NCBI GenBank assembly: GCA_002507175.1
Contig: DAZE01000020.1
Coordinates: 5,872-69,871 of the forward strand
Origin: Euryarchaeota archaeon UBA558
Lineage (GTDB): Archaea; Thermoplasmatota; Poseidoniia; Poseidoniales; Thalassarchaeaceae
DNA: 64,000 nucleotides
Reading direction: 5' to 3'
Positions 18,824 to 63,971 of this stretch are shown piece by piece; positions within the stretch are counted from its first letter, which is position 1, and the number at the start of each line of letters is the position of its first letter. Made by a program: the position numbers and the translations under genes. The notes beneath the pieces were generated by a model. The model had not been told where the DNA came from. It saw nothing but the letters and a program-made list of their open reading frames with translations, and ran no database searches.

Positions 18824-18899
18824 TGGCGCCCCGACCGGGATTTGAACCCGGGTCGCAGCCTCGACAGGGCTGCATGATAGGCCACTACACCATCGGGGC
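18824..18899 (-). tRNA. tRNA-Asp (GUC), CCA encoded
   Basis: Hand-folded. Acceptor GCCCCGA/TCGGGGC, anticodon stem CAGCC/GGCTG, loop CUGUCGA, T-arm CCGGG-TTCAAAT-CCCGG, discriminator G followed by CCA. 76 nt. Confidence 0.9.
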
Positions 18900-21075: not shown

Positions 21076-21153
21076 TGGCGGGCGCGGCAGGATTCGAACC
21101 CGCGGTCCCCGGCTTAGGAGGCCGGTGCATTATCCAGGCTATGCTACACGCCC
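21076..21153 (-). tRNA. tRNA-Arg (CCU), CCA encoded
   Basis: Hand-folded. Acceptor GGGCGTG/CGCGCCC, D-arm GCAT/ATGC, anticodon stem CCGGC/GCCGG, loop CUCCUAA, T-arm GCGGG-TTCGAAT-CCTGC. 78 nt. Confidence 0.9.
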
Positions 21154-29700: not shown

Positions 29701-31949
29701 TCGATGTAGAGCAAGGGGGATCTGGGACCTTTTCAGTGATTATCAGAAACACTGGCAATGTTTACGACACATTCGCATTCCACGATCCGACGACATTGGA
29801 TGGCCAAATGGAATGGGGCCTGCAATTTGGATGGGGTATCGATTTCCCTACGGAGGTGTCTTTGGATCCCGGCCAGGCTGTGACAAAGAATCTGAGGGTC
29901 ACGATACCCACATCTCAAACCCCTGGAACCTACATCATATATCTCAAGGGCTGGTCCACAGGTGAACCAATATTCTCTATTGACCATGGTACATATGATG
30001 TACTTGGTTTGTGGATAAACGTCTCAGTAAAGACCTCTGGTAATATCGTATTCAAGATACCCGATGGTACAAACATGAACGTACTTCCTGGTGATTGCGC
30101 AGAGTTTGACATTGAAGTGACCAAGAACTACTCTCCAGGCTCGCTGATTTTTACAACTCCGGGGGGCCCACAGGATCGCCCATCTGACATATCTCAGAGC
30201 GTTTGGAGATATGACCACTGGACGGTCGATTTGGATTTCTCATCTGCGCCCGGAGGCAATGGGATCCCAGATTCGGCCCCACGATATTTTGCCATGGTTG
30301 GCAGTCCGTACATCGTGACAGCCAAAATGTGCGCTCCTTACAATGCCACCGCTGGATTTGGCGAGTCAGTTGTAGTAAGGGCCCATCTTGAAGGAACACC
30401 CGAGGTTAGAGATTCAGTCCTCCTCCTCACCGATGTAATGCAAGTTTATGAGCTGGAGGCAGTAGTTGATACAACGCTATTAGAATTATACCCAGGGCAA
30501 TCATTCCCACTCTCTACCGAGATCACGAACACAGGAAACGGTCCCGACAGATTCGACATCACTGTGGAATCCATAACTGGGCCGGAAGGATCCTACATCT
30601 GGGATATCGATATCCCTAGAGCGAACTTTGGAGAACTCCTTAGAGATCAATCCAAAGAATTCGATCTAATAATCAACGTACCTGAGAGAACGCTTGCTGG
30701 GACCTATAATGTCGTCCTCAATGTTCTCAGCGAAGAGGAATTCGAGGAAACCAAAATCAGGGATACAATTGACCTACAAGTTCAAATCGGTGAGTTTCAT
30801 GATTTGAGAATCACACTTGACCCATCAATGGAATCAAAGATCAAGACGAGCGCCCCAGGAAGAACCGTCAGATTCCTAATGAATCTGACTAACGCTGGGA
30901 ATGTACCAGACACCCCAATGTTGCACAACCACACCAAGTTAGAAAATGGAGGAGGTTGGGATGCCGTACCTGGTATGAACACCCTTTCGAAATGGGTGAT
31001 TTCATATGCATTGGTGGAGAATTTTGATACTGAATTCCCCCAGGAAATTCCCTGCCTTGCTGCTGATCCTAGCTTAGAGACCGACCAGGGTCAATGCTAC
31101 CTATCAACGACAAACACAGTCACGTTCCCAGAGATGGCAGCATTCACGACTATCCAGTTCGTCGCAATTATATCAATCAGTGATGAGGCATCGTTAAGCG
31201 ATCGTATGATTGGAATAAAAACGACATCATCTTATGGCTCCGCCGCAGATGGAGGTGACTTCGATGAAACTCCACAATGGGACGACTCGTGTGCACTCGA
31301 TGAGAACAAGGACGGCCTCCCTGACAACTTCCTTCCAAACTGTGATACTAATGAGCAGGTACTCCAACTGATGCTGAGGGCACCAGACCTCAAGATTCTA
31401 ACAGCAGAAGCCTCCAAGCCTAGGGCTGCTGTTGGAGAAATGATATCCGTGACCGTGAAATTGCAAAATGTTGGGAACATCCACGCAACTGACGTAAGCG
31501 TCATTTTGTGTTCAGATCAGACACCTTCACATATTCGAAAGAACGGTTGTGAGGAAGACAACATAGTATACAGACAGATGATCGAGGCCGTGATGCCGAT
31601 CTCCCAATCCAACAACCAAGAACTCTTGGAGATCTCCTTGCTCTACATAGTTGAGGCGGGGTCCCAAGACATCGTTGTCTATGTCGATCCTGACAATGAT
31701 ATCATTGAGTCGGAGGAGTCGAACAATTACTACAGCATGGAAGAGAAGATGGGATCCAACAATCGCTACCTCGACCCGCTTCTGCAAGCAGTTGCAACCT
31801 ACTCCGTGCCAGTGATCATCATAGGCGCTACCATTGCCTTAGGAGCAGTGGCGGCGGTTGTCATATGGGGTCGCAGGATCGAGGCTATGAGAGAGTATGC
31901 CGAGAAGAAGAGCATGATGACTTACACAGACGACGATATGGAGTTCTAG
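26784..31949 (+). CDS. Giant surface protein: signal peptide, 7 propeller-like repeats with a nested vWA domain, multiple CARDB/NEW3-like beta-sandwich modules, C-terminal TM anchor
   Basis: Signal/TM FLMTFLMLSSLIAVMAVPAPVQA. Repeats carry the HxxW(x)D core. MIDAS VVPIDTSGSMG at 27594..27608. Repeated N(T/A/V)GN..D..F modules (IRNTGNVYDTFAF, ITNTGNGPDRFDI, LTNAGNVPDT, LQNVGNIHATDV). C-terminal helix VPVIIIGATIALGAVAAVVIW. Confidence 0.85.
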   Translation: MNIQFPEGIAVDSKKKKNSFLMTFLMLSSLIAVMAVPAPVQASEIVLTDAINVVNSGPNSDNMVAVNADSEGNVHFVWSRNTQHLYYKMLGPAGETLISETQISNPGAHQAWHPDIAIDSEDRVHIVWADRSGQWTIWYQMLDPEMHEQDGTTAVDGLNGISIIDDYEIKTASQDRDWPAIAIDSLDNAHIVWQDNHDPLDLYYSQTQIYYEMIEIDVSSREAQTKIDATLLTPIIGMKGHPDITIDSEDFVQVVWDDTRGGKVEMVVPIDTSGSMGTEWADMCTVFYGGQFSSGGNFIGLKPMLEQANMTVFETLYGIGGVQQVAAATSGYCTTAYQTGGSGSQGPRANHLGQTPTDTSGGIRKLTGAVLGGSAISLSYDGGGQGSEAWGPSSTWSCLSWRDAQGRLGNLANPPTTEDHRWNPNATKIIIPISDENANDGSPEDATDRESVDEAHDACVLAGISPVPLWAGSDNSVGSQMRDLAECPNNQPGTPSVTRYCPGGTPRTSHAQGAVYAFPTGQSAATELQFMVEALIYLATNASREIFLTVLDPYALLDNPWVGFTPGQPATQCFPQCSATSGSRYYIEDVGPSLDLEGYGHLVVVNDTRVTLQDAYSLHPSIALDSQGNTHIAWMDGRPYGFDLEVNYEVFYTRLKLKGAGIWDGASDGLPSFGIKQIMDSAISNVEGLDWFDDNPDRGLYDATSYLPEILVDDFDNVHIAWLDNSNLSQGESIMYTRLNSTTDEYPNGFPTLNNLALAVLDQWEIFEVSSWKSGKLGPNSGRNPQLGTPPAFANDLGSGAHVAWSDSTKCGESNSAKETLCYVHVLTGLVDVALAPSETYYHVIEPGESTIYNLTIDNPTPGPSDLVADTFRLTVENVPMNWSATLYYASNHTPIFDSTPIYLKGNSDGQNLVPLYLRVRAPTIYQAEGDQLAEINVRAVSYKDPAIDDDRQLVVLMDVVHGIDLSTINKNIDVEQGGSGTFSVIIRNTGNVYDTFAFHDPTTLDGQMEWGLQFGWGIDFPTEVSLDPGQAVTKNLRVTIPTSQTPGTYIIYLKGWSTGEPIFSIDHGTYDVLGLWINVSVKTSGNIVFKIPDGTNMNVLPGDCAEFDIEVTKNYSPGSLIFTTPGGPQDRPSDISQSVWRYDHWTVDLDFSSAPGGNGIPDSAPRYFAMVGSPYIVTAKMCAPYNATAGFGESVVVRAHLEGTPEVRDSVLLLTDVMQVYELEAVVDTTLLELYPGQSFPLSTEITNTGNGPDRFDITVESITGPEGSYIWDIDIPRANFGELLRDQSKEFDLIINVPERTLAGTYNVVLNVLSEEEFEETKIRDTIDLQVQIGEFHDLRITLDPSMESKIKTSAPGRTVRFLMNLTNAGNVPDTPMLHNHTKLENGGGWDAVPGMNTLSKWVISYALVENFDTEFPQEIPCLAADPSLETDQGQCYLSTTNTVTFPEMAAFTTIQFVAIISISDEASLSDRMIGIKTTSSYGSAADGGDFDETPQWDDSCALDENKDGLPDNFLPNCDTNEQVLQLMLRAPDLKILTAEASKPRAAVGEMISVTVKLQNVGNIHATDVSVILCSDQTPSHIRKNGCEEDNIVYRQMIEAVMPISQSNNQELLEISLLYIVEAGSQDIVVYVDPDNDIIESEESNNYYSMEEKMGSNNRYLDPLLQAVATYSVPVIIIGATIALGAVAAVVIWGRRIEAMREYAEKKSMMTYTDDDMEF

Positions 31950-46818: not shown

Positions 46819-47688
46819 TCAAGCCATGGCTGCGGTAGCCTTCTTGGCTCCCATCCATGCTACTACACCGAAACCGATCTTGTTGATCATGTCAGCGATG
46901 TTGTATAGAACGCCCATTAGCTCCTGGTTGCCGTCTAGTAGATTGGCCTCAGGGCTGTACAAGTAGCCGATTGGGTAGATGACCCACCCTACGACTATGA
47001 ACATCCTTAGTGCGTTAAGGCTCCACTCTAGTTCGGCCTTCACCTTGCTGTTGTCGATACCCTTTGGCTCCATCATTCCGAATGGATCTCCGACTGCAAC
47101 AATGATCATTGCCCAGCCCACACCGCTCAATATCAAGCAGATTAGACCAGCGGAGTCACCGAATGTGCCATCCATGAGGCCTGTCTCGCCGGCGAATCCC
47201 CAGCCAATCATCCAAACTGCACCGAAGAAACACACGTTTGCGAATCCTCCGATTCCTGGGATCTTAGCGTCGGTGATAGCATCCTTCCCCACCAAGCTTG
47301 GGAACTTGAGAGCCATCAGCGGGACTGTGATGAGCCAGTCCATGTATCTGTAGTGGACGCTAACTATTCCATCCTCGACATAGGCGCCACGCATGTAGTA
47401 GTAGTGGAACGCTGCGATACCCACAATTAGTGCGGAAATCGTCATTGTTGTCCTGTACTCTTCAGCAACGCTGTTTCGCTCCATGACGAAGAAGATGAAC
47501 GCCGCTCCCATCGAAATGTACCCGACGAAGAAGAGGAAGAAGGTCAATAGAGCCATTCCCTCGTAGTCGTTTGGGTTTGCGTATTCCGATGCGGATGCAG
47601 TGGACAGTCCCAGTACTCCCAGCGTCATCAGGGCGAGTATTGGGGCACTCATTCTCAGGCCATTTTTGTAGGATGGATTAAGATCCAT
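46819..47688 (-). CDS. Proteorhodopsin-family microbial rhodopsin (DTK motif)
   Basis: Helix C RYMDWLITVPLMALKF, FHYYYMRG (PR-type His), helix G YNIADMINKIGFG with the Schiff-base Lys, and seven hydrophobic helices. Confidence 0.95.
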   Translation of the reverse strand: MDLNPSYKNGLRMSAPILALMTLGVLGLSTASASEYANPNDYEGMALLTFFLFFVGYISMGAAFIFFVMERNSVAEEYRTTMTISALIVGIAAFHYYYMRGAYVEDGIVSVHYRYMDWLITVPLMALKFPSLVGKDAITDAKIPGIGGFANVCFFGAVWMIGWGFAGETGLMDGTFGDSAGLICLILSGVGWAMIIVAVGDPFGMMEPKGIDNSKVKAELEWSLNALRMFIVVGWVIYPIGYLYSPEANLLDGNQELMGVLYNIADMINKIGFGVVAWMGAKKATAAMA

Positions 47689-47763: not shown

Positions 47764-48444
47764 TTGCCTCGCTCGGCCATGGACAACCCAAGGGAACTAC
47801 TCCTGTCACTTTCTGATGCTGCCGCTGGAACTGACAATCCACTTTCTTGGTTTGAAGACCTTTATTCCAGAGCAAATAGGGATGATAGCTGGATTCCATG
47901 GTCTGATGGAAATCCCAATCCACTGTTGGTTGACTGGGTGATCGGGCAACCTGCGGGGAAAGCATTAGTTGTTGGCTCAGGACTAGGGGAAGATGCTGCG
48001 TTTCTAGAAAAAAAGGGATGGCAGGTAACGGCTTTCGACATCTCAGAAACTGCGATAAAATGGTCTTCGGACAGGTACAGTCACACGTCTGTTTCTTGGA
48101 TGGTAGCTGACCTGCTGAACCTTCCTCCAGAGTTGTGCGGTGACTTTGATTTGGTACTTGAAGTCCACATCTTACAGGCCATGCCCGTCGAACTAAGGAA
48201 AATAGCCTCACAAAAACTAGCCCCCCTGGTATCAGAAAACGGTTTCTTGGTCTGTATTGGACGCTATGCTACAGAGGACGATCTTACTATCGGGCCACCA
48301 TGGCCATTGAGCTATTCATTTATTGAGTCCATAGGCGCGAGTCTCGGTGAAATGAGCTTGAAGAAAATCAGGCTTGAGTCCGATGATAGTTCCGTTTCCC
48401 GCTACAGGGCTATTTGGAGACGAACGAAAATTAAGAACGATTGA
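47764..48444 (+). CDS. SAM-dependent methyltransferase (TPMT-like class I)
   Basis: ALVVGSGLGEDAAFL (motif I), VTAFDISETAI (acidic post-beta2) and a Trp-rich N-terminus as in thiopurine-MTase-like proteins. Alternative ATG at 47779. Confidence 0.75.
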   Translation: MPRSAMDNPRELLLSLSDAAAGTDNPLSWFEDLYSRANRDDSWIPWSDGNPNPLLVDWVIGQPAGKALVVGSGLGEDAAFLEKKGWQVTAFDISETAIKWSSDRYSHTSVSWMVADLLNLPPELCGDFDLVLEVHILQAMPVELRKIASQKLAPLVSENGFLVCIGRYATEDDLTIGPPWPLSYSFIESIGASLGEMSLKKIRLESDDSSVSRYRAIWRRTKIKND

Positions 48445-51400
48445 TGGACTTGGTAATCTGGTCGGCATTTTCGACCACCACAAATCCGTATTGTTCCTCG
48501 AGCGACCTTCTTATCATACGAAAATCTGAATCTCTCGTGGCCACCAATACAGAACCGACGTCCCGGAGCTTCGGCGATATGCTGCTCGAATAAGAAGCCA
48601 AACTAGCTGCATCGATGATTATCTGTCGATCCCCCTCCTCGGGGTAGATCGCCTTACCATTAATCACGGATCTTGATGGCTCGTCATCTCTTCTTTGCCG
48701 CTTGCTTTCATCTATTTTCGCAAAGATGTTTGAGTGGCTTTCGAGGAAGTTGCTAAGACTACTAATGATCGAATTGTCCTGCTCGAATGCAAGATTGACC
48801 CCACTGAATACCTCAATGACATAATTTCGAATTTCCTCTATCCCTGCATTTTCTATAGATGACCATAAGCCTTGGTCTTGGTATTCGCCGTGAAAAAGCC
48901 TCTTTGAGGTAGAGACGTCGCGTGTTCTATTGGAAAACTCCTTCATAACTGATTCTGGTAAGTAGGTTTTGATCGACCCTGCGTCTTTCTGTCTTCTCAA
49001 TGCCCATTGAAACGCTCTTTCCAGGGACCAATCCAGATTACCCAAACCATAAGGTGAACCCCGCTTGATCAATTCGTCTTTGAATGCGTCAATTAGCAAG
49101 TTGGTGTCTACAATGACAAGCGGTTTCAAACTTGTTATGTTGAAGGTTCTTCGGTCCTTGATAGGTATGGAAGACTCCAATGTGGTGAACATAGACCTTT
49201 GAGATCGCCGAAGTCTTCTGACTCCCTCCTCATCGAAACCCCCGTGATTAATTGCAGATTGGAACATTCTCAATCCAGAAAGTGGCTTTCTCTCAGCCTG
49301 TTCTTGTGCAATTAAGGATATTTCAAGCACGTCCCTCCCCTTCTGCAATTCCTCTTTTAGTCGCCTCTCAAGTCTATCTTCATTCCTGCGCCCTGGCCTA
49401 TCAAGCCTCTTTAATGCCGCCTTTACCCGGCCTTCGAAAGGATCACTCGGAAGTCCTAACTCATCTGGATAAGTCCTCAATCCGTTAATTTCCTGGGTCT
49501 TTTCTTCTTGATCCATATCCGAAGCATATCCCAACACTAGATTGGTCGCAACGTCGCTTCTGCCCTTGTCGTATTCACTACAAACTCTGAGAAATAATTG
49601 AAACCTTCGGGTTATCGCAGCCATCAATTCGGCATTTCGATCAATTAGGTCAACAGCCTGTTTCCATGCTTTGGCGTGTGCGAAGTGAATCAGTGCCATC
49701 CGCCGAAGTTGTGTAGTTCTCTCAAACCTTTGAGGCTCCAATCGCCTCGCAGCCTCTAGGAAACATCTTCCTGCATTCAGATGGTCTCCTTTACCGATCG
49801 AGATAGCGGCTCTCACTATCTGTGAACCAGATGAATCGGGAGCATGTTCTCGATACCATTCTTCCATTACGGGGAGGGCTATATGGTATTCTTCTATCAT
49901 TTCAGAGATTGATATCACCAATTGTATGGATAACCGTCCTTCATTGACAATCGAAACGAGAGTATCGGTCGCGGACCTCTTTTTGTCTTCGTCTTGCATT
50001 TGTAATTCAATTCTCGCTCTGTTCAGCCGTAGCAAGGTGATCAAGGAATCAAAAAGGGAAGACTCAATGTCACCTAGGCTTGAATTATCGGCAGCGGTAA
50101 TCAATTGCTCTATGCTATTTTCCCTCACTATGCCCGTTCCGTCCTCCAATAGGGCCCTTCTAGTTTGATTCAAGGCCTTGATTCCAGTCGTGCCAAGCCT
50201 ATCATGAAGGGCATTGAGGTCATGGGAGAATCCGTTTATTACAGCTAGCAATGCCACAGAAACCTCGGAAAGACAAGGATCCTCAATCCTTTCTAAGGCC
50301 TCTATCGATTTCTTTCTGAGGTCGACCATCCTGTCCATTTTGTTGATCCCGATTCTTGCCGACAAAAGGTGCCATACGAGCAACCCCCGCATTGGGTTTC
50401 TAACAACCGCTTCTCCGACAAGAATTTCGGATAGCAGCTTTATTTCATTTCCTTCGGTTGCTATGTCGGACAAGACTTCCAAATGGCCTGCTTTCAGACC
50501 TCTGGCAATGACCTCTTTAGCCACTATAGTCCTGATTTTTACCGATTTTGAACCATCATATAGTATCTCGATCAACCCTGATGAGTCTATTTTTTTTGCA
50601 CTTTCGGAAGCCATTTCCATCAAATCCTTATCATTCCCAGAAAATCTTCCCACTGCAATTAGCACGTCGATCGGCCACATTGGACGGCCAAGAATGACTT
50701 CTCGAGCCCCATCAAGTCGATTTCCGTCAATCAGTTTCGATGCAATCATGAAACTCAACTTAGCCGGCCAAGCCGAACCGTGACTGTCCAACAAGTCCCC
50801 ACCTCCCGTAAGTGCATCTAGGTCTAGATCTAAATCTGGGAGACTCACGGCCCGCCAGGCCTCAATTATCACAGCGTAGGATAGCCTACTCTCAGGCTCT
50901 TTTTTGATCCACGAGGCCACGTCTTCTTCACTTTTGGAATGTCGGAACGAGTTTAGAGTCAGATACAGTGTTGCTATCTTCTTGAGATCCGGGTCGCTAG
51001 AAGCAGTTCTGAATAACGCTTCGGCGTCCTCGCCAATCGATGCCATCATTATGCCGACAAAGAGGGATCCTACACCCGTATCCGTACCAAAATCTCCAAT
51101 TTGCTTCTTGACCCTGCGCGAGTCCACTTTCGTTGAATACTCACGCCTCAACATGAGAAGTGATTTTCTCTGTTTCTGGGATAGCTTCATTGGAGGATCG
51201 ATTGATAGCCAATCATGCAATGCGGAATGGTCGATTGGATCAAAATTGGCCTTTTCCAACCATGTTTCGATATTCGACTCCGCATTTGAGACTTCCAGTA
51301 CCGGGAACCTACTCAATTCAGCGAAGATCGGAGCCTCTCTGGCCAACCTCTCCCAAGCTGGATGAACACCCTCATCGCACCTCTTTCTGACATCAGAGGC

Positions 51401-51739
51401 GTCTCTTGTGTCTTTCATTACATCGGATTGTAATAATATGTATCTGCAGAGACGAAAAGCAGGGTTGTCTTCTTCCTCGTCTCCAATAATCGCTTCCCTT
51501 GGATCTGAGGTCGATCGGCGAACCCTTCTGCCGGCACGTCGAGAGGATTTCTTGGATTCAGATCCATTATCGTCTTGACGCTCAGGACTGGTTTTCGCCG
51601 CAGCGATCCTCACTAGAGCCCTCCACGATTTCGGCAACTCCTCATATCCAACCGTACGAGAAACCTTCCTCAATCGCGCTCTCTCATCATCACCTGCAGA
51701 GGACAGTGCCTCCAGGCATTCAAGGAGTTGAGATTCCAT
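48431..51739 (-). CDS. Large helical-repeat protein with a C-terminal PIN-like nuclease domain
   Basis: The last 231 aa (48434..49126) carry the four PIN acidic positions in order: LVIVDTNLLID, PESVMKEF, IIIDAASLA, VATRDSDF. The preceding roughly 870 aa are alpha-helical-looking with no recognised motif. Confidence 0.75.
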   Translation of the reverse strand: MESQLLECLEALSSAGDDERARLRKVSRTVGYEELPKSWRALVRIAAAKTSPERQDDNGSESKKSSRRAGRRVRRSTSDPREAIIGDEEEDNPAFRLCRYILLQSDVMKDTRDASDVRKRCDEGVHPAWERLAREAPIFAELSRFPVLEVSNAESNIETWLEKANFDPIDHSALHDWLSIDPPMKLSQKQRKSLLMLRREYSTKVDSRRVKKQIGDFGTDTGVGSLFVGIMMASIGEDAEALFRTASSDPDLKKIATLYLTLNSFRHSKSEEDVASWIKKEPESRLSYAVIIEAWRAVSLPDLDLDLDALTGGGDLLDSHGSAWPAKLSFMIASKLIDGNRLDGAREVILGRPMWPIDVLIAVGRFSGNDKDLMEMASESAKKIDSSGLIEILYDGSKSVKIRTIVAKEVIARGLKAGHLEVLSDIATEGNEIKLLSEILVGEAVVRNPMRGLLVWHLLSARIGINKMDRMVDLRKKSIEALERIEDPCLSEVSVALLAVINGFSHDLNALHDRLGTTGIKALNQTRRALLEDGTGIVRENSIEQLITAADNSSLGDIESSLFDSLITLLRLNRARIELQMQDEDKKRSATDTLVSIVNEGRLSIQLVISISEMIEEYHIALPVMEEWYREHAPDSSGSQIVRAAISIGKGDHLNAGRCFLEAARRLEPQRFERTTQLRRMALIHFAHAKAWKQAVDLIDRNAELMAAITRRFQLFLRVCSEYDKGRSDVATNLVLGYASDMDQEEKTQEINGLRTYPDELGLPSDPFEGRVKAALKRLDRPGRRNEDRLERRLKEELQKGRDVLEISLIAQEQAERKPLSGLRMFQSAINHGGFDEEGVRRLRRSQRSMFTTLESSIPIKDRRTFNITSLKPLVIVDTNLLIDAFKDELIKRGSPYGLGNLDWSLERAFQWALRRQKDAGSIKTYLPESVMKEFSNRTRDVSTSKRLFHGEYQDQGLWSSIENAGIEEIRNYVIEVFSGVNLAFEQDNSIISSLSNFLESHSNIFAKIDESKRQRRDDEPSRSVINGKAIYPEEGDRQIIIDAASLASYSSSISPKLRDVGSVLVATRDSDFRMIRRSLEEQYGFVVVENADQITKSINRS

Positions 51740-55852: not shown

Positions 55853-55982
55853 AAGATACTACCTCCTGAAACTATTCAATCCAAGTGGGCCAGATTTGAT
55901 ACTCCGACTCCCTCCATGATACCCACATGCAGCCTTTCCGGGTGCGATTCAAATATGTGTCTGAGGTAAGGGGCAACCCGGT

Positions 55983-58900
55983 GTGGGTATGATAGCAGAT
56001 TTTGGTAGAAGGAGAGAAGTGAGTAGATCCCTGTTCCTTGTTGTTCTGATGGTAGCAAGTTTACAGACGCCGACCTTGGCCGCAACAACCACAGGTACCT
56101 CTGATAATCACAGTCCATACGAGTCTCCGCCCCAGATCCAAATTCAATCTGAGGATATCGACACTACGACAAATTATGCCCCCAATTTTGCGATGCTTCC
56201 TGACCATCCAGCCTTCAAAGACGCATCATGGTCTGACCCAGGCTTACTTTACGGGAGAATAACTGACATCTCCTTCTTGGACGAGGGATACAGATTCATG
56301 GTTGAAGAGACCGAAACGGAGGACCATGATAATGACGGAATCAACGACCTTGATGATTTGGATGATGACAACGATGGGATTTCAGACCTCATAGAGCGGT
56401 TTGATGGATGCTTCGGAACAGACCCATATGACCATGACAATGACGGTTTGAAAGATGAGTTTGACTTTGATGACGATAATGACGGTATTTTGGAGGGGCC
56501 TATCGACTATTCACAGGGCACAGATCCTTGGAATGTCAGCACTGATCGATACGTGGACCCCCAGACTACCCATCCCTGGACGGGCCTCCCAGTGGGAACT
56601 GGATACTTGGTAGATCAGGATCCATACGACCACGACAACGACGGGGTCCCTGACGAGGATATAGATGGGTCAGGAAAAGGGTCCTATGACGAAGATGATG
56701 ATAATGACGCCAGAATTGACCAATTCGTCTGGCCCTGTGACTTTGATGGCGATGGCCTTCAGGACTACTGGGATGCAGATGACGATAATGATGGCGTGAT
56801 CGATATCTGGGACACACATCCATGGAACAGTTCTGAAACTCGGAACATAACTGCTACCGCGCAGAACTGGAGCGCCGCTGAATCATGGGCATCTAGCAAA
56901 ACTCACCAGGTATCCATAACCGAAAACGGGTACTCAACACCTAATTTGGCCATAGAGATCGGAGACTCGGTTAGGTGGACAAATGACGATATCGAGAACC
57001 GTACTGTGACGGCAGCAGACGGCTCATTCGACAGCGGCATAATCCCCCCCGGCGGATTCTTCGTCCACTTGTTTGAAAATGAGGGCCAGACAAGATATTC
57101 CGAAACAGCAGGAACAGGTGTTGGAGATGGAACAATTACTACAAATGCTGCAACTGGCTTGCCCTTCCCAGACGCATTCAACCTCGACTTCGATACATAT
57201 GGTAAAGAGAAGCTCGACTTCGCCTTCAAGGAGCAAAATCTATGGCATCCTCGGAATCCTGCATTCGATCAGATTGTTGACGGAGATCTGGATGGCGACG
57301 GATTACCCAATTTCATCGATCCCGATAATGACAATGACGGAACACCTGATTCCGCGGACACTGATGACGATAACGATGGCTTGCTGGACATGTGGGACAT
57401 AGACGATGACAACGATGGCATCCCAGATAACTGTCTGAATGTCCTTGGCCCACAAGATAACATGGAGGGCTTCTCAGAATACTTTGGCCAAACTCCTGGA
57501 GTTGATTGTGAGATCGACTATGACAGGGACGCCGACGACGATGCCTACAGAGCGATCGATTCGGACTATGATTTGGTTTGGGATTGGAAGGACACAGATC
57601 TTGGCGCAGCAGATCCTGCAGATAACCTACTCGGAAATCCATCCTTAGATCCGAACGACCTGCCTTATGATTTGGACAATGATGGAATTTTGAATCAGGA
57701 CGATCCATATCCCATGGTGCATTCCGATGTAATTGATACCTGGAACTGCGAGTCGCTGCAGAACCCGAATCCAGTGAACCCAGACCCTAGGTGCTTAACA
57801 GAGCGAAAATCGTACACAGGAAACAACGATTGGGACGGCGACGGCTTCTCTAACTGGGAGGACGTCGATGATGACAATGACGGCGTTCTGGACTGGCTGG
57901 ACATAGATGAGAACTGCGATCTTGATGACGATAACGATCTTCATCTCCTAAACGGTTCCAGATACCGGGACGATGGTCCCAACGCCATTGATACTGACAT
58001 TGATGGCGATGGCCTGTCAAATGATGAGGATTGGGATGATGACAATGACGGAATATCCGACCTGTACGACCCAGACGACGGGAATTGCGGTGTAGTGGAC
58101 ATTGATTCCACCGATCAATTTGACAACTCGTATTCTCACCAAGACGGCGACATCATAGACGGTAGCGCCGATAGTCAAATCTATGTCGGCACAGGGACAC
58201 TGCAATGGGATATGTTCTGGCACTTTAGCCCATTTTTCGTAGATCATGGATTCGTTCTTCCATACAATGGATACCAAGATGACTTCACATTTGGACCTCC
58301 TACGATCGTTTCCAATGGAAATGTCCCAGAGATGTATTGGCATGTCATGATGAAATGGAGCCCATGGAATGGCAACAACTACTTTGACCTCGATATGGAT
58401 GGAGACTCTTTGATCAATGGTATCGATGTTGACATAGACGCTGATGGCGTCCCAAATTGGTGGGACAGGGATGAGGGCTCCGACGGAAGACTGGATGTGA
58501 ACGATCCAGCATATGGTGGCTCATTGGATGACGGAGAATGCGACTTGTCCATGTCTTTCCTGTTGGGTCTGGACGACGATCAAATTAGCTGTGGCATAGC
58601 CTTGGCATGGCTCTATGGATTCCCACTCAGTCAGGCTAGATCCAGTAATGGTGTCCCATTCGTCCTACCATATTCCTCTAGGCCAGATCCACTCTACACT
58701 GATGGCCCATACAACGGAGAGAATTCTGCTGGTATTAATGACTTCACCTGTGAAACCAACTGCTTTCACTTCGATTTCCTCGGCCCTGCAGACGCAGGCC
58801 CTTCCGCTGCCGTGACATTTGATGACATGATCAACAACAGGGACCTGTGGACGGCCTACGTTGGAATTAATTTTGGCATGTTCCAATGGGTCTCCGACGG

Positions 58901-61900
58901 GAACGGGAACCTCTTCCCAGATGAATTCGCGGACCTGTTGAATAACAATGAAGATCCTGATGACGATTGTGGAGCCCCCGTCACAGGAACTCCAAATCCA
59001 TCATGCATGGTTAACGATACAGCCGATCTAGATGACGATTTCGACGGCGTTTTCGACCATTGGGACGTTGACGATGACAACAATGGCGTTTGGGATTTCT
59101 TCGAGGTTGACGTCAACGATGACTTGGATGATGATACCAACACGGAACCCCTGGGGAACTTTTTCACCGGATACAACTGCGATGATCAGGACGATGACGG
59201 TACGGATACAGATCCCGATGGGGATGGTTGGTACCAATCGGTTTGGGATCGAGGCAGATTAGGACAGGGATTGCTCTTCCCCCAATATTACGACGTCGAC
59301 AATGACAACGATGGCGTCCCGGACGGGGAGGACCCCGATGACGACAACAACGGAGTCTTGGACACCGACCAGGAATTGATTTGCTTCCAAGGGGAAGAAC
59401 AGAGCCCATGGGACCACGACAATGACGGTATTCCAGATTGGGCAGACACGGATTGGGATGGCGACGGCTTATCCAATACCATCGAGCTTGCTGGTGGGGG
59501 AGCCTCCCATCCAATCGCCCCATGGGACCACGACAACGATGGCCTTCGTGATGACATTGATCTCGATGATGATGAAGATGGCATGAACGATGAAGACGAG
59601 GTGATGCTTTGGCCAACGAGGTTCAACTCCAATTCAACAAATCCCTGGGATCATGATGATTACGGAACCGGGTCAGGAATTTATGATCCAACAAACGCAT
59701 CCACGGGTCCAGACGCTCAGGATGAAGATGACGACTCAGATGGCATACCAGATATCGATTGGGACCACTTGGAGGAGAACGAACTATGCACCGACTCAAG
59801 CGGAGCTCTATACCCTGCAAGTGATTGGGACAATGACAACGATTGCATATTAGATGCAGACGACAAACCACCCACCAGAATTACGCTCAATCCAATCCAA
59901 ACTGTCTGGTTAGACGCCCAATTCCCTGCAGTATTTACCGGTCGCGTGGATGTTCTCGATATGGAGACCGGAGCATTTGTTCCCGGAACAGACCTACCCG
60001 TTAGAATAGTGATTGAATACGCAAGGAACTCGACTGAGGCCCTACGAACAGTGGAGGTTCTTACGAACGAAATGGGGAATTTCACAGTAGGACAATACCT
60101 CTATCCAGAGGATATTGAAGTAGGTCCATCCTCTATGTACAACCTTCGTGCTGATGTGATAGAGATGTTTGCCCACGACGGGTCGTCTTCAACCCCCGTC
60201 CCCCTACAGGTCAGGGGAAACACGACCGTCGATTACGTATCCTGGACTTATTTCAGGAGTGACGAACAACCCCTCTTTGTGGATTTCAAGGTGCATTATG
60301 ACGCAGATTGGCAGAGGGGTATATTTGACAATAGAATAAAACACGCTCCAGTCTCATTCACAGTCGCCGGAGGTCCATTCGGAAACCGCACGGAACCTAC
60401 TATGTTTGATGGATACGGATTCGGATACAGGGCCGACTCAAACGGTTGGGTGTCCCTCACTTTCGTCCAACAACAGGGTGCTCAAGGTTTCTGGAAACAG
60501 GTTCGATGGAACTCCACCATGGACAACGGTGTGGGGCAACCCAGCGGCGGATACGAGGAAATTGTGTGGGACGACAACGCAAAGGAACATCAATACGTGT
60601 CAAGATACGAATATACGAACACATCTTTGCCAGTCGGAGATTATGAGTTCATAGGCTTCTCGAAACCAGATTTGGGAGCTGAGTGGCCCTTCCCATACCT
60701 CAACGGCAGCGAATCAGAGACATTCTACATACGCTCAATGCACAGAATGTACATCGAGGCCGTCATACACACGACCTCATTGAGACCCGTTTACTTCTGG
60801 GATGCCACCCAATTTATCGGATCGTCTTTCGGCGCATGGAGGGCTCTATTCCACGCTCCATCACTTCAAGCAGCAGACATATCCTTTGAGAATGCCAGCA
60901 TTGGCAAGCCATACCCCATCCTTTGGGATGGAACATCGGCAGGGCTTACTGGTGAGGCTGCTAAGCTGAGGCCCTTCCTTTCGGCCAATCTGACTCATTG
61001 GTCTATAGCAATGCAAAATGGAGGAGACTTCAACGCCCCACCATGTGGACCCGCAAACCCAGCGGATCCATTCAGTCAAACTCGTTGTGAGATTATGCCA
61101 GAATTATTTACTGGTGAGTCACTCAGGGTGGTAGGGGAAGTTTACAATCGAACCTTTGTACCATGGTCTAGCGACCCGATTGCCTTGCAGGTCGATCTCG
61201 ATCAAAACCTAATATTCTCTGGCGCCCAAGAAACTGGTTTCGCCAGGGTGCCAAACATGATTGATGGCAAAGCAAAGTTTGACTACAACTGGACATGGTA
61301 CTCACAGTATGCAGCGGGCACATACGGCATCAAGGCAGATTTCACGAACTCCAATTTCTACTTCACGGGCAATCAATCATCCGTTTTGTCCGCCACTGGA
61401 GCCTACGTCAACGTTTCAGTAATCGGAACGAGCCAATTTTTACCGATTGAGGACTCCCGTCTATATCGCGGAGTAAACAGAACCGTGGAAGTGAGGCTGG
61501 TGGATAACTCCCTGCAACCACTGAGGGAGGTCCCAGTCACATATTCGTGGAACGCAGACGGCACCAATGGACTGACATCAACCGACAAAAATGGAATATT
61601 CAGGGTCAATCTCTCAACCGGACAGAATCACCCTCTAGGTGCATTCACACTCAGCTATGAATACACAGGAGACGCTTTCCACCAATCCTCGACAGGTCAG
61701 ACGGAACTATGGGTCGTTTCTCGAACCTTCATCGACCTACAATCCAGCGTCTCTGGAGCATTAGTGAGCGGTCAAGACTGGTTCTTCACAGCCCAGGTGA
61801 CCGATGACAATCGAACTGCATTTACGAAGGACTCAGGACAGGCATTGGATGGGTGCGAGGAAAACGGAGGAAATATCACTTTGATTCTGGAAGGATTAGA

Positions 61901-63971
61901 CTTCGAGGACAGAGTTCACAGAAAAATCGTGGAGACTCTGTGCCCGAGTGCCGGTGCCATCACGCACCAACTTACCTTGGATCCCGAGATACTCACCTCT
62001 GATGCTGAATCATTCCTCCCAGATGGTTTTGGACCAGTAAATGTAATTCTCAGATTTAATGAAAACCTTCCCCACGAGGGATGCGGCCCACTAGGCCCCG
62101 ACGCCTTGGAGATCGCTGGAGCATGGGACGAATGTACTCTCGATATCTACAACGACCATTACAGGAGAGTACTTCAGTTCCAAGAAGAGGGATTCTATCT
62201 CCTCGGAGGGACATCGTTGAGTGTTGATGAGCAAACAGTCTACACTTCCGAGGCCGATCCCATAACAGGTGAATCTATTCAAAAGCCAATGTCTGTTACT
62301 GGTCAATTGGTAGATGAACTTGGTAGGAACCTAAGCTTCCGAAATGTGAAGGTGACCTATGAGATGCTGGGAAGTCAGCTCGGAATACGAACATGCCTTC
62401 CGGGTACCACCGATGCCAACGGATTCTTTGAGATACTATGCTCACTTGACGGCGTTCAAGCAGGTCAAGCAAAAGTACAGGTGATGTACAACTCATGGGA
62501 AAATGCAGATCGTTATCGATATCTGAATGCAACAAAAACCATGTTATTCCCAGTATACTCCAATTCTACATTGCAGATGATCGAAATCGGCCCATTCAGG
62601 AATGACGTCGACACGTACACGTTTGCAAATGGCAGCACATTCCCAGTTCTTTACCTAAAGGAATCGTTCCACCTCGATGCAAGACTTACCCAGGTGAATG
62701 GAAATCCAGTTGGTGGCAAGTGCCTGAACATCTATCTCGATCCCGAGACCAATACTAGACCTTTCGCAACAGCAAGGACAAACGACGGAACAGGCTCAGT
62801 TGAGTGGTTTTCAGGTGACAAGGAGGATAATCCAAGCCAAAGAGGAGTAGACCCAAGCGGCGACCAGCTCGAGGGCTTCAGAACCGTGAGAGTCGCCTAT
62901 GAACCCACAAGATCTGTCCCTGGGGGATGTGAGATAGAAAACAGCCCAGTGATTAATGGCTCTTTCGTGGACGTTGAAGTTCTAGTACAGAGCAGAGTCG
63001 ATATTCTACTGAGCCAGCAATGGGCACGCCCCGAGGGGTATCAAGTTGGTGAGATTGTCGAGGGTTCGGTCGCAATACTCCGAGATAGGATCGATTTGGC
63101 AGTGGAAGGGCAGACCGTCATATTCTCCCAGTACTACAACAACGGAACCGGTTGGGAGCTCTTCAAGGTCTATATCACTACCACTAACGAGCAGGGTACA
63201 GCCAATTTCAGTTTCGAATACACAGGCCGTGATCTCCCAGGGGAACAATCCGCCATCCTCGGAGGCCCTGAAGCAGTAAACGGGGAATGGAAAATAGAGG
63301 TAGAGTTCCAGGGTGATTATCGATTCGTAAGCTCGGAACTGAGCAACACTCCCAGGATAAAACTTGCAGATCCCGTCGACCCAGACCAACAGAGCTTCTT
63401 TACGGCCAGGGTCATGACAGTTTTGGCCCTCATCCTGGTCTCGACACTACTACTAGCTGCCTACATGTACAGGAATTACGTAGAAAGAAGGAGAATAGAG
63501 GTACTCAGGGGCATACTGACAGATTCGTTGTGGGCTTTGCAAGGACGAAATTCGTATATTGAGACCATTTTCAACTGCTATAAGGACTTAGTCAAGTTCT
63601 TCAGACAGAGAGGAGCAATGAAGAAAGTTTACGAAACCACTAGAGAATTCGAGTACGCAGTAGATAAGATGCTTGGCGGAATAGCGCCCCCGGAGGACCT
63701 ATCAGAATTCTTCAGCATATTTGAGGAAGCAAGATATTCAGATCATGAGATCGGAGCAGACCAGAGAGATAGAGCCATAGCGGCACTTCAAAACATCATC
63801 ACCCATCTATCAAAATCATTGGGAGAGAGCATGCTCAGCCGAATACGCTCCGAGGGCTTAGAGATGTATGGCGCATCGACCAAAGCTGGTACCTTTGTGG
63901 ACTCCGAAGGCCAGGTCAGAATTGCTGGAGAACAGGACGACTCAGACGAGAAGACGGGATTCAACATATGA
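55983..63971 (+). CDS. Giant Ca-binding surface protein: signal peptide, about 30 TSP3-like DxDxDG repeats, cupredoxin-like module, about 1100-aa beta-rich region, TM anchor, cytoplasmic DUF4129-like domain
   Basis: Signal LFLVVLMVASLQTPTLAA. Many DHDNDG/DDDNDG units. TM helix VMTVLALILVSTLLLAAYMY (63395..63470). C-terminal TREFEYAV...FEEARYSDHEI. GTG at 55983 or ATG at 55989. Confidence 0.9.
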   Translation: MGMIADFGRRREVSRSLFLVVLMVASLQTPTLAATTTGTSDNHSPYESPPQIQIQSEDIDTTTNYAPNFAMLPDHPAFKDASWSDPGLLYGRITDISFLDEGYRFMVEETETEDHDNDGINDLDDLDDDNDGISDLIERFDGCFGTDPYDHDNDGLKDEFDFDDDNDGILEGPIDYSQGTDPWNVSTDRYVDPQTTHPWTGLPVGTGYLVDQDPYDHDNDGVPDEDIDGSGKGSYDEDDDNDARIDQFVWPCDFDGDGLQDYWDADDDNDGVIDIWDTHPWNSSETRNITATAQNWSAAESWASSKTHQVSITENGYSTPNLAIEIGDSVRWTNDDIENRTVTAADGSFDSGIIPPGGFFVHLFENEGQTRYSETAGTGVGDGTITTNAATGLPFPDAFNLDFDTYGKEKLDFAFKEQNLWHPRNPAFDQIVDGDLDGDGLPNFIDPDNDNDGTPDSADTDDDNDGLLDMWDIDDDNDGIPDNCLNVLGPQDNMEGFSEYFGQTPGVDCEIDYDRDADDDAYRAIDSDYDLVWDWKDTDLGAADPADNLLGNPSLDPNDLPYDLDNDGILNQDDPYPMVHSDVIDTWNCESLQNPNPVNPDPRCLTERKSYTGNNDWDGDGFSNWEDVDDDNDGVLDWLDIDENCDLDDDNDLHLLNGSRYRDDGPNAIDTDIDGDGLSNDEDWDDDNDGISDLYDPDDGNCGVVDIDSTDQFDNSYSHQDGDIIDGSADSQIYVGTGTLQWDMFWHFSPFFVDHGFVLPYNGYQDDFTFGPPTIVSNGNVPEMYWHVMMKWSPWNGNNYFDLDMDGDSLINGIDVDIDADGVPNWWDRDEGSDGRLDVNDPAYGGSLDDGECDLSMSFLLGLDDDQISCGIALAWLYGFPLSQARSSNGVPFVLPYSSRPDPLYTDGPYNGENSAGINDFTCETNCFHFDFLGPADAGPSAAVTFDDMINNRDLWTAYVGINFGMFQWVSDGNGNLFPDEFADLLNNNEDPDDDCGAPVTGTPNPSCMVNDTADLDDDFDGVFDHWDVDDDNNGVWDFFEVDVNDDLDDDTNTEPLGNFFTGYNCDDQDDDGTDTDPDGDGWYQSVWDRGRLGQGLLFPQYYDVDNDNDGVPDGEDPDDDNNGVLDTDQELICFQGEEQSPWDHDNDGIPDWADTDWDGDGLSNTIELAGGGASHPIAPWDHDNDGLRDDIDLDDDEDGMNDEDEVMLWPTRFNSNSTNPWDHDDYGTGSGIYDPTNASTGPDAQDEDDDSDGIPDIDWDHLEENELCTDSSGALYPASDWDNDNDCILDADDKPPTRITLNPIQTVWLDAQFPAVFTGRVDVLDMETGAFVPGTDLPVRIVIEYARNSTEALRTVEVLTNEMGNFTVGQYLYPEDIEVGPSSMYNLRADVIEMFAHDGSSSTPVPLQVRGNTTVDYVSWTYFRSDEQPLFVDFKVHYDADWQRGIFDNRIKHAPVSFTVAGGPFGNRTEPTMFDGYGFGYRADSNGWVSLTFVQQQGAQGFWKQVRWNSTMDNGVGQPSGGYEEIVWDDNAKEHQYVSRYEYTNTSLPVGDYEFIGFSKPDLGAEWPFPYLNGSESETFYIRSMHRMYIEAVIHTTSLRPVYFWDATQFIGSSFGAWRALFHAPSLQAADISFENASIGKPYPILWDGTSAGLTGEAAKLRPFLSANLTHWSIAMQNGGDFNAPPCGPANPADPFSQTRCEIMPELFTGESLRVVGEVYNRTFVPWSSDPIALQVDLDQNLIFSGAQETGFARVPNMIDGKAKFDYNWTWYSQYAAGTYGIKADFTNSNFYFTGNQSSVLSATGAYVNVSVIGTSQFLPIEDSRLYRGVNRTVEVRLVDNSLQPLREVPVTYSWNADGTNGLTSTDKNGIFRVNLSTGQNHPLGAFTLSYEYTGDAFHQSSTGQTELWVVSRTFIDLQSSVSGALVSGQDWFFTAQVTDDNRTAFTKDSGQALDGCEENGGNITLILEGLDFEDRVHRKIVETLCPSAGAITHQLTLDPEILTSDAESFLPDGFGPVNVILRFNENLPHEGCGPLGPDALEIAGAWDECTLDIYNDHYRRVLQFQEEGFYLLGGTSLSVDEQTVYTSEADPITGESIQKPMSVTGQLVDELGRNLSFRNVKVTYEMLGSQLGIRTCLPGTTDANGFFEILCSLDGVQAGQAKVQVMYNSWENADRYRYLNATKTMLFPVYSNSTLQMIEIGPFRNDVDTYTFANGSTFPVLYLKESFHLDARLTQVNGNPVGGKCLNIYLDPETNTRPFATARTNDGTGSVEWFSGDKEDNPSQRGVDPSGDQLEGFRTVRVAYEPTRSVPGGCEIENSPVINGSFVDVEVLVQSRVDILLSQQWARPEGYQVGEIVEGSVAILRDRIDLAVEGQTVIFSQYYNNGTGWELFKVYITTTNEQGTANFSFEYTGRDLPGEQSAILGGPEAVNGEWKIEVEFQGDYRFVSSELSNTPRIKLADPVDPDQQSFFTARVMTVLALILVSTLLLAAYMYRNYVERRRIEVLRGILTDSLWALQGRNSYIETIFNCYKDLVKFFRQRGAMKKVYETTREFEYAVDKMLGGIAPPEDLSEFFSIFEEARYSDHEIGADQRDRAIAALQNIITHLSKSLGESMLSRIRSEGLEMYGASTKAGTFVDSEGQVRIAGEQDDSDEKTGFNI
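56322..59866 (+). repeat. Coding region rich in degenerate tandem thrombospondin-type-3-like repeats (D-x-D-x-D-G-x-x-D)
   Basis: By manual reading, about 30 copies of D[HDWNL]D[NG]DG-type loops. The recurring DNA core is gatgacgataatgacgg. The block is interrupted at 56904..57110 by a non-repeat module. Confidence 0.8.

Follow-up and report, generated by a model that had tools for sequence, protein, structure and literature searches.

The DNA analysed here, called the window in what follows, is a stretch of 64,000 nucleotides from Euryarchaeota archaeon UBA558, a member of the Thalassarchaeaceae (assembly GCA_002507175.1, contig DAZE01000020.1, positions 5,872 to 69,871 of the forward strand). 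Near its right end lies a gene of 2662 codons, referred to as the giant gene, that is open from end to end on the forward strand, as the initial annotation had reported. Its product is best explained as a type I membrane glycoprotein and a core, single-copy component of the envelope of Marine Group II (MGII), the order Poseidoniales. These are the most abundant archaea of the surface ocean, and they are uncultured. The topology is based on hydropathy and the positive-inside rule. The gene and the parts of its product are laid out as follows:

55983..63971, + strand: whole open reading frame (ORF), GTG start, 2662 codons (amino acids); 296 kDa, pI about 4.05; full-length orthologues have 2503-2714 amino acids and 49-86% identity.
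55989..56090, + strand: signal-like N-terminal segment; a basic n-region (RRRE..R), the hydrophobic stretch SLFLVVLMVASL, then TLA-AT.
56313..59879, + strand: polyanionic loop region, residues 111-1299, with 28 strict or 33 relaxed DxDxDG-type loops.
56895..57167, + strand: cupredoxin-fold insert, residues ~305-395; phmmer match to 9cck_A (E-value 3.9e-5), Foldseek match to 5fc9_A (TM-score 0.72), predicted local distance difference test (pLDDT) 87-94.
58539..58919, + strand: loop-free alpha/beta insert, residues ~853-979; pLDDT 50-76, with invariant Cys853, Cys870, Cys923 and Cys927.
59880..63380, + strand: beta-sandwich stalk of immunoglobulin (Ig), macroglobulin (MG) or transthyretin-like type, about 10-11 domains, residues 1300-2466, modelled with AlphaFold2.
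63393..63476, + strand: single transmembrane helix, residues 2471-2498, seen by hydropathy and followed by YRNYVERRR (positive-inside).
63477..63968, + strand: cytoplasmic tail, residues 2499-2662 (164 residues), which carries DUF4129 and is conserved to the C-terminal ...GFxI.
63576-63791, + strand: DUF4129 (PF13559), residues 2532-2603, located after the last transmembrane helix; 30.2 bits for a cut-off of 24.8, over the full profile length (1-69).

The acidic region is built on a repeated loop with consensus D1-x-D3-[NG]-D5-G6-[IVL]7-x-[DN]9-x-x-[DE]12. Some 30 loops had been counted by eye at residues ~115-1295, and this count, together with the peptides and coordinates given for it, stands: the pattern D.D.DG yields 32 regular-expression matches that reduce to 28 non-overlapping sites, and the pattern [DN]x[DN]x[DN][GN] yields 33 non-overlapping sites, from residue 114 to residue 1293 (nucleotides 56322..59861). 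When the same 1190 residues are shuffled 1000 times, 3.2 +/- 1.8 matches to [DN]x[DN]x[DN]G are expected (maximum 11), against the 35 observed. The spacing is exactly 13 residues for 12 successive loops, while other loops lie 23-26 residues apart, and the region also contains short linkers rich in Trp and Pro (NPWDHDD, for example). Asp makes up 22% of the residues, and the net charge is -289. In EF-hands, thrombospondin type 3 repeats and related folds, acidic DxDxDG loops of this kind bind Ca2+, and Ca2+ binding is predicted here.

Modelling of this region is poor: AlphaFold2 gives residues 100-1299 a mean pLDDT of 42, with most loops below 50, and the usable parts are the cupredoxin insert and one small domain. 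Foldseek searches with this model return cupredoxins only. A pLDDT below 50 over the loops, in models computed without ions, is compatible with ion-dependent folding, but it is no evidence for it.

The initial annotation assigned the loops to thrombospondin (TSP) type 3 repeats. One part of this assignment survives, namely the motif: the region contains tandem DxDxDGxxDxxD loops in units of 13 and 23 residues, with runs in the 13-residue register. Family membership does not, for the profiles, the PDB searches, the cysteines and the TSP_C domain all fail. The Pfam family TSP_3 (PF02412) has no match in the whole protein at E<=1, and the best of six fragments reaches 15.4 bits (E 0.015, cut-off 25); TSP3_bac (PF18884) has no match at E<=10, either on the whole protein or on six acidic fragments (cut-off 25 bits); and none of 120 orthologues has a precomputed match to either family. 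The cysteine pair and disulfide that each TSP_3 repeat carries are absent: residues 111-1299 contain 18 Cys for 33 loops, at no fixed loop position, and Trp, Ile, Leu, Phe or Asp mostly occupy positions 10-11, the place of Cys in COMP. Pfam finds no TSP_C (L-lectin-like) domain, and a beta-sandwich array follows the loops instead.

Searches of PDB sequences with the protein, with a profile of 30 family sequences and with a profile of a 26-residue double loop never returned thrombospondin or COMP. The profile matches, all weak (E at least 0.005), are to EF-hand proteins, lanmodulin, calmodulin, anthrax PA, BamM and an OmpA-family protein. With the double-loop profile, only Ca2+/Ln3+ loop proteins are found, lanmodulin and BamM included, again weakly (E at least 0.02), which would fit a generic DxDxDG calcium-binding loop. 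A direct BLASTP comparison with the type 3 region of COMP, using a sequence verified to be 100% identical to 3fby_A, gives at best a marginal 23.5 bits (pairwise E 0.015); in its best segment, DLDGDGLPNFIDPDNDNDGTPDSAD, two consecutive loops are aligned in the same 13-residue register. HMMER applies composition corrections that penalise Asp-rich matches, and a sub-threshold score therefore neither excludes nor demonstrates distant homology to TSP_3. Since homology is not demonstrable, convergence on the DxDxDG motif is equally possible.

What the protein has in common with thrombospondins and COMP (PF02412; 3FBY, 1YO8, 1UX6) is a series of contiguous Asp-rich loops without flanking helices, often 13 residues apart, and, by analogy, Ca2+ may be expected to act as a structural cofactor. 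The differences are that the giant protein is archaeal and membrane-anchored, that its loops are interspersed with unrelated inserts, that it has neither a Cys pair per repeat nor TSP_C, and that Trp or hydrophobic residues occupy positions 10-11. The bacterial TSP3 proteins (OmpA-family 5WTL, BamM 9N2D) are likewise prokaryotic surface proteins with DxDxDG loops, and one of the best PDB profile matches, itself weak, is to BamM (9n2d_D, E 0.005-0.03); in contrast to them, the giant protein has no TSP3_bac match, many more loops, and loops at fixed positions.

Outside the loops, the hydropathy curve shows two hydrophobic segments only, at residues ~16-35 and 2471-2498. The first peaks over residues 16-35, with a hydrophobic stretch of about 12-14 residues, and an equivalent segment is present in all orthologues examined. 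Residues 36-110 form a linker rich in Ser, Thr, Pro and Gln that is poorly conserved, with 23-33% identity except in the closest orthologue.

Two parts of the protein went unmentioned in the initial annotation: the DUF4129 tail and the cupredoxin-fold insert. The latter, some 100 residues long, is an insertion confined to the closest clade, and its model aligns with amicyanin at Foldseek TM-scores of 0.67-0.72. The ligands of a type-1 copper site (His, Cys, His, Met) are lost in the protein of the window, which reads ENRTVT ... YSETAGTG, and they are intact in the orthologues P0004, P0006, P0009 and P0010, which read DHTVT ... YSCTIHPxMTG; P0001, P0002, P0016 and P0017 lack the Cys ligand, and most of them other ligands too. 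With an intact site, the insert would be a blue-copper domain exposed outside the cell on a surface protein.

The long beta-rich region followed by a transmembrane helix, as first described from the sequence, is borne out: with 67 orthologues as input, AlphaFold2 predicts residues 1290-2480 to be all-beta, with a mean pLDDT of 86, and the model reads as a succession of about 10-11 sandwich domains. Foldseek aligns this stalk with tandem MG and Ig arrays (alpha-2-macroglobulins, complement, mastigoneme, the neck of GhpA) with E-values down to 7e-21; the TM-scores are only 0.1-0.17, and the match is therefore to a generic tandem beta-sandwich array. Pfam adds weak matches to Big_1, MG2 and MG4 at residues 1834-1901, the Big_1 match (PF02369, residues 1834-1880) scoring 33.9 bits for a cut-off of 34.9, and many orthologues have a precomputed PF02369 match; a scan with NCBIfam gives a single, spurious match of 13 bits. 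The stalk carries 24 N-x-S/T sequons where shuffles give 9.1 +/- 2.7, a 2.6-fold excess that none of 2000 shuffles attains, and 18 orthologues have between 22 and 35 of them; in the acidic region sequons are not enriched (10 versus 10.2 expected).

In fold, the stalk domains resemble the MG arrays of alpha-2-macroglobulin and complement and the Big_1 domains of intimin and invasin, and the Foldseek matches include A2ML1, alpha-2-macroglobulin and ECAM. Identity with alpha-2-macroglobulin was rejected: the stalk has no C[GLA]EQ thioester motif, its TM-scores are those low values just given, and no further Pfam domain specific to alpha-2-macroglobulin is found in the protein.

A search for relatives of residues 1463-2662 among 1.84 billion cluster representatives returned essentially one full-length representative, which indicates a tight family. 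A more distant protein, P0223 (1983 amino acids), shares the junction between loops and stalk, with 32% identity. Many proteins of 300-3000 amino acids have in common with the giant protein only the last beta-domain, the transmembrane helix and the DUF4129 tail, at 26-33% identity. The relatives with this tail that were examined carry Ig-like arrays (Big_3_5 or CarboxypepD_reg), and some have Transglut_core, with or without TgpA_N; those with a named source belong to Thalassarchaeaceae or Thermoplasmatota. The tail is 25-39% identical to that of giant paralogues, among them P0241, from Thalassarchaeaceae, which combines DUF4129 with a transglutaminase core, and P0200, which has DUF4129 and no transglutaminase match. 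TSP3_bac scores 27.4 bits in P0241, above the cut-off, and 21.3 bits in P0200, below it. Given this common cassette of beta-domain, transmembrane helix and DUF4129, the latter looks like a shared anchoring or coupling module of giant surface proteins, and its role in such proteins of the lineage may in general be one of coupling on the cytoplasmic side.

The giant gene is found in every genome of the lineage examined. Among GTDB species genomes it occurs at 46 loci, one per genome, all in metagenome-assembled genomes (MAGs) of Poseidoniales type except for three bacterial ones. The three orthologues concerned (L020, L043 and L049, with 50-55% identity) come from MAGs labelled Verrucomicrobiales, Acidimicrobiaceae and Gammaproteobacteria, and their contigs most likely stem from Poseidoniales and were binned wrongly in these public MAGs. 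The set of full-length orthologues counts 120 proteins, whose named members belong to Thalassarchaeaceae, Poseidoniaceae or Poseidoniales. The number of loops varies from 27 to 37 in this set, with a mean of 33, and their positions are fixed down to 50% identity: 27 of the 33 loops stand at the same position in all of 18 diverse orthologues. Across these 18, conservation is highest in the acidic region, at 57-86% identity, with the beta region at 48-90%, the transmembrane helix at 16-84% and the tail at 48-88%. The Asp and Gly columns of the loops are invariant in an alignment of 30 sequences, and invariant or at least 90% conserved in an alignment of 67. The initial annotation had proposed comparing copy number between related genomes; a variable copy number is not supported by this comparison.

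The conservation of the giant protein can be set against that of its neighbours by comparing the window, with tblastn, to two syntenic loci, L051 and L001, where the giant proteins are respectively 86% and 65% identical to that of the window. The neighbouring products give the following identities:

PanD: 66% with L051, 63% with L001.
SPOUT methyltransferase: 73% with L051, 66% with L001.
Cobalamin adenosyltransferase: 59% with L051, 57% with L001.
ORF242: 63% with L051, 46% with L001.
ORF333: 61% with L051, 51% with L001.
ORF1102: 47% with L051, 34% with L001.
Isocitrate dehydrogenase: 88% with L051, no match in L001.

The giant protein is better conserved than most of its neighbours, and only isocitrate dehydrogenase equals it. 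Adhesins and surface layers exposed to phages are seldom under such strong purifying selection, which points to a tightly constrained structure.

At the DNA level, the gene is not repetitive. Tandem Repeats Finder returns nothing, and the direct-repeat families of the gene, with units of 18-72 nucleotides, are only 60-81% identical. The suggestion that the repeats are prone to recombination is therefore unsupported, and so is the suspicion of a misassembly. A companion claim, that the loop stretch creates spurious antisense ORFs, does agree with the data: such ORFs, of 106-150 amino acids, run across the Asp-rich stretch, and they arise because GAY codons are read as RTC on the complementary strand.

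In the loci of MGIIb, the giant gene lies between panD and the operon L18e-L13-S9-RpoN, and in a locus of MGIIa the same operon likewise follows it, so that the adjacency holds in both families of Poseidoniales. The operon is out of view in the window, because the latter ends 29 nucleotides past the stop codon. DUF4129 proteins are typically found in a MoxR / DUF58 operon context, which is absent here: the neighbours are panD and ribosomal-protein genes. The region between panD and the giant gene contains the following elements:

55897-55902 and 55917-55922, + strand: two TGATAC direct repeats, 20 nucleotides apart.
55948..55955, + strand: TATA-like box TTCAAATA, about 38 nucleotides upstream of ATG 55989, partly conserved in the window, L051 and L001.

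Both TGATAC repeats are invariant in the upstream alignment of the same three loci, whose giant proteins are 65-86% identical; the pair is possibly the site of a regulator or transcription factor for one of the two divergent genes. The box TTCAAATA is a putative archaeal promoter element. The true start of the gene is likely the ATG at 55989 rather than the GTG at 55983, because the closest orthologue, P0001, begins with MIGDF..., which matches the in-frame MIADF... of the window; the GGTG at 55980-55983 could be a Shine-Dalgarno-like element.

The window also encodes a rhodopsin, a thermosome, topoisomerase VI and a class II ribonucleotide reductase. The rhodopsin gene (46819-47688, - strand) occupies the same syntenic slot as positions 933-1709 of L051, yet the two proteins are 31% identical, while flanking genes are at 58-88%. 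This pattern looks like an in-place "overwrite" replacement of proteorhodopsin by horizontal transfer, as described by Rinke et al. 2019 (PMC6461757). Another large surface protein is encoded at 26784-31949 (+ strand); its 1721 amino acids comprise a signal-like N-terminus, CARDB and NPCBM_assoc/Ig-like domains, a C-terminal transmembrane helix and a short tail, with neither DxDxDG loops nor DUF4129. The ORF of 1102 amino acids (48431-51739, - strand), which has no Pfam match and no transmembrane segment, is syntenic in L051 and L001 and evolves fast, as the identities above indicate. The genes for tRNA-Asp(GTC) and tRNA-Arg(CCT), at 18824-18899 and 21076-21153 (- strand), are ordinary.

Three functions were initially proposed for the giant protein: adhesion to particles or polysaccharides, cell-cell contact, and envelope rigidity. 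The pattern of conservation favours the last over adhesion. We consider that the most likely function is that of a constitutive envelope scaffold, stiffened by Ca2+ and comparable to a surface layer (S-layer), with a probability of roughly 45%, because adhesins are rarely so invariant.

Such a scaffold might work as follows. The beta-sandwich array would form a glycosylated stalk and keep the acidic region at a distance of tens of nanometres from the membrane. The loops, which are EF-hand-like (ligands at positions 1, 3, 5, 9 and 12, Gly at position 6), would be permanently occupied by Ca2+: seawater contains about 10 mM of this ion, and the loops should therefore always be loaded. Bound in this way, Ca2+ would serve as a structural cofactor: it would neutralise a self-repelling polyanion and fold it into a rigid, defined shape, a wire that would work like that of thrombospondin and COMP, with Trp and other hydrophobic residues in place of the disulfides. 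What would result is an outer scaffold or canopy that is constitutive and negatively charged, closer to an S-layer than to a variable adhesin, and the DUF4129 tail would tie it to a cytoplasmic partner.

The comparison with the S-layer glycoproteins of archaea such as Haloferax volcanii works both ways. As far as general knowledge of that class goes, these are acidic, N-glycosylated, Ig-like multi-domain proteins with a C-terminal membrane anchor and divalent cations in the structure, and the corresponding traits are observed or predicted here: a signal-like N-terminus, a transmembrane anchor, the low pI, and the excess of sequons in the stalk, from which glycosylation is predicted. On the other side, the giant protein exceeds them in size by a factor of 3-4, evolves slowly and carries a conserved domain on the cytoplasmic side, and no S-layer protein is among the top 50 Foldseek matches of the stalk.

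Several points weigh against a scaffold. The S-layer-like role is pure inference from sequence and models. A mass of 296 kDa is far above the typical size of S-layer proteins. Slow evolution counts against an adhesin, yet it is atypical of an S-layer as well, since both usually evolve fast. A conserved cytoplasmic domain is unusual for an S-layer, and could indicate signalling or another role. The geometry of the Ca2+ wire is hypothetical, the acidic region being the part that AlphaFold2 models poorly, and the loops could bind Mg2+ or trace metals instead of Ca2+. A bolder form of the proposal makes the giant protein the principal S-layer equivalent of Marine Group II, with a glycosylated stalk, a canopy of disulfide-free, tryptophan-packed Ca2+ wire, and a coupling to the cytoplasm through DUF4129; in this full form we regard it as a tentative conjecture, more doubtful than the scaffold itself.

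The next candidate, and the leading idea of the initial annotation, is a Ca2+-dependent adhesin, whose loops would bind particles, polysaccharides, algal surfaces or cells, with the Ig-like stalk as an extender. The layout of signal peptide, Ca2+ loops, Ig-like array and anchor does resemble that of giant bacterial adhesins, and the neck of GhpA and the mastigoneme arrays are among the Foldseek matches. RTX adhesins such as LapA and MpIBP are, as is generally known, also very large surface proteins, whose extended shape is thought to depend on Ca2+. However, RTX nonapeptides, a type I secretion signal and an outer-membrane retention module are all missing from the giant protein, which also lacks variable tandem extender repeats and is conserved and non-repetitive at the DNA level. 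More generally, adhesins are typically patchy in distribution, multi-copy, variable in length and fast-evolving, while the giant gene occurs as one syntenic copy throughout the order, keeps its loops in place and is better conserved than most of its neighbours. Pfam recognises no ligand-binding domain in the protein (lectin, vWA, PA14 or CBM), and most MGII cells are reported to be free-living (PMC6864105). Adhesion in this order has been argued from genomes: Rinke et al. 2019 (PMC6461757) read a "widespread presence of thrombospondin ... genes" in Poseidoniales as evidence for it, a reading that is repeated in PMC8821943. Neither of these papers describes the giant protein, and the supplements consulted do not name the thrombospondin genes; what was meant, at the KEGG level, may be either the giant ORF or the TSP3_bac-positive paralogues. 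On balance an adhesin is possible and somewhat unlikely, and it would make the protein an ordinary member of a well-known class.

A layer that handles cations is improbable. Here the canopy would concentrate or buffer Ca2+, Mg2+, trace metals, lanthanides or cationic substrates, or would signal the state of these ions through DUF4129. In its favour are the net charge and some 30 loops of metal-binding type, the presence of lanmodulin and of an EF-hand domain protein among the best, though weak, profile matches, the strict conservation of the cytoplasmic domain, and the type-1 copper site that is intact in the cupredoxin insert of some orthologues. Against it, the loops do not have the proline at position 2 that is typical of lanmodulin; sites that are saturated at the Ca2+ concentration of seawater would make a poor sensor; and Pfam recognises no signalling domain in the tail.

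There is an even slimmer chance that the giant protein is a non-catalytic relative of TgpA-like transglutaminase giants, active in the same envelope-maintenance pathway as the DUF4129 / transglutaminase proteins. The last beta-domain, the transmembrane helix and the DUF4129 tail align with P0241 at 25% identity over 299 amino acids (E 1e-21), and both P0241 and P0182 carry Transglut_core, P0241 in addition to its TSP3_bac repeat. The giant protein shares with TgpA of P. aeruginosa and with these two paralogues the C-terminal module of beta-sandwich, transmembrane helix and DUF4129, as well as Ig-like arrays; in place of a polytopic TgpA_N domain and a transglutaminase core, it has a signal peptide and acidic loops, and Pfam finds neither Transglut_core nor TgpA_N in it. 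A cryptic transglutaminase in residues 690-1015 was considered and rejected, as a hidden Markov model of the family built on this segment matches neither the P0241 nor the P0182 paralogue. The homology is thus limited to stalk and anchor.

An artefact of assembly or annotation (collapsed or chimeric repeats, or a run-on ORF in GAY-rich sequence), to which the Asp-rich composition and the spurious antisense ORFs might lend some colour, has a negligible probability: the same protein, of 2503-2714 amino acids and with the same order of domains, recurs in independent assemblies (ENA, NCBI, JGI, Logan and Tara), the DNA repeats do not exceed 81% identity or a length of 72 nucleotides and form no tandem array, and the structural model of the stalk is confident.

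Literature searches turned up nothing specific on the S-layer or cell envelope of MGII, on metaproteomic detection, on DUF4129 in archaea, or on the giant protein, beyond the general remark on thrombospondin genes in Rinke et al. 2019. As read from the sequence, its elements (DxDxDG loops, an Ig-like stalk and a DUF4129 anchor) are known ones, in an arrangement that we did not find described, and their conservation appears unusual. Occurring once per genome, in fixed adjacency to a ribosomal operon, and conserved above most of its neighbours, the giant protein is a concrete candidate for the main envelope protein of MGII.

The region of loops would be a thrombospondin-like Ca2+ wire without cysteines in each repeat, with loop positions fixed across two archaeal families, and the protein connects the uncharacterised DUF4129 with the way in which giant surface proteins are anchored. 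If it is indeed the main envelope protein of these archaea, it would be a possible phage receptor, the interface of the cell with particles, a target for metaproteomics and an epitope for cell sorting, and DUF4129 would be a general module for anchoring or coupling giant archaeal surface proteins.

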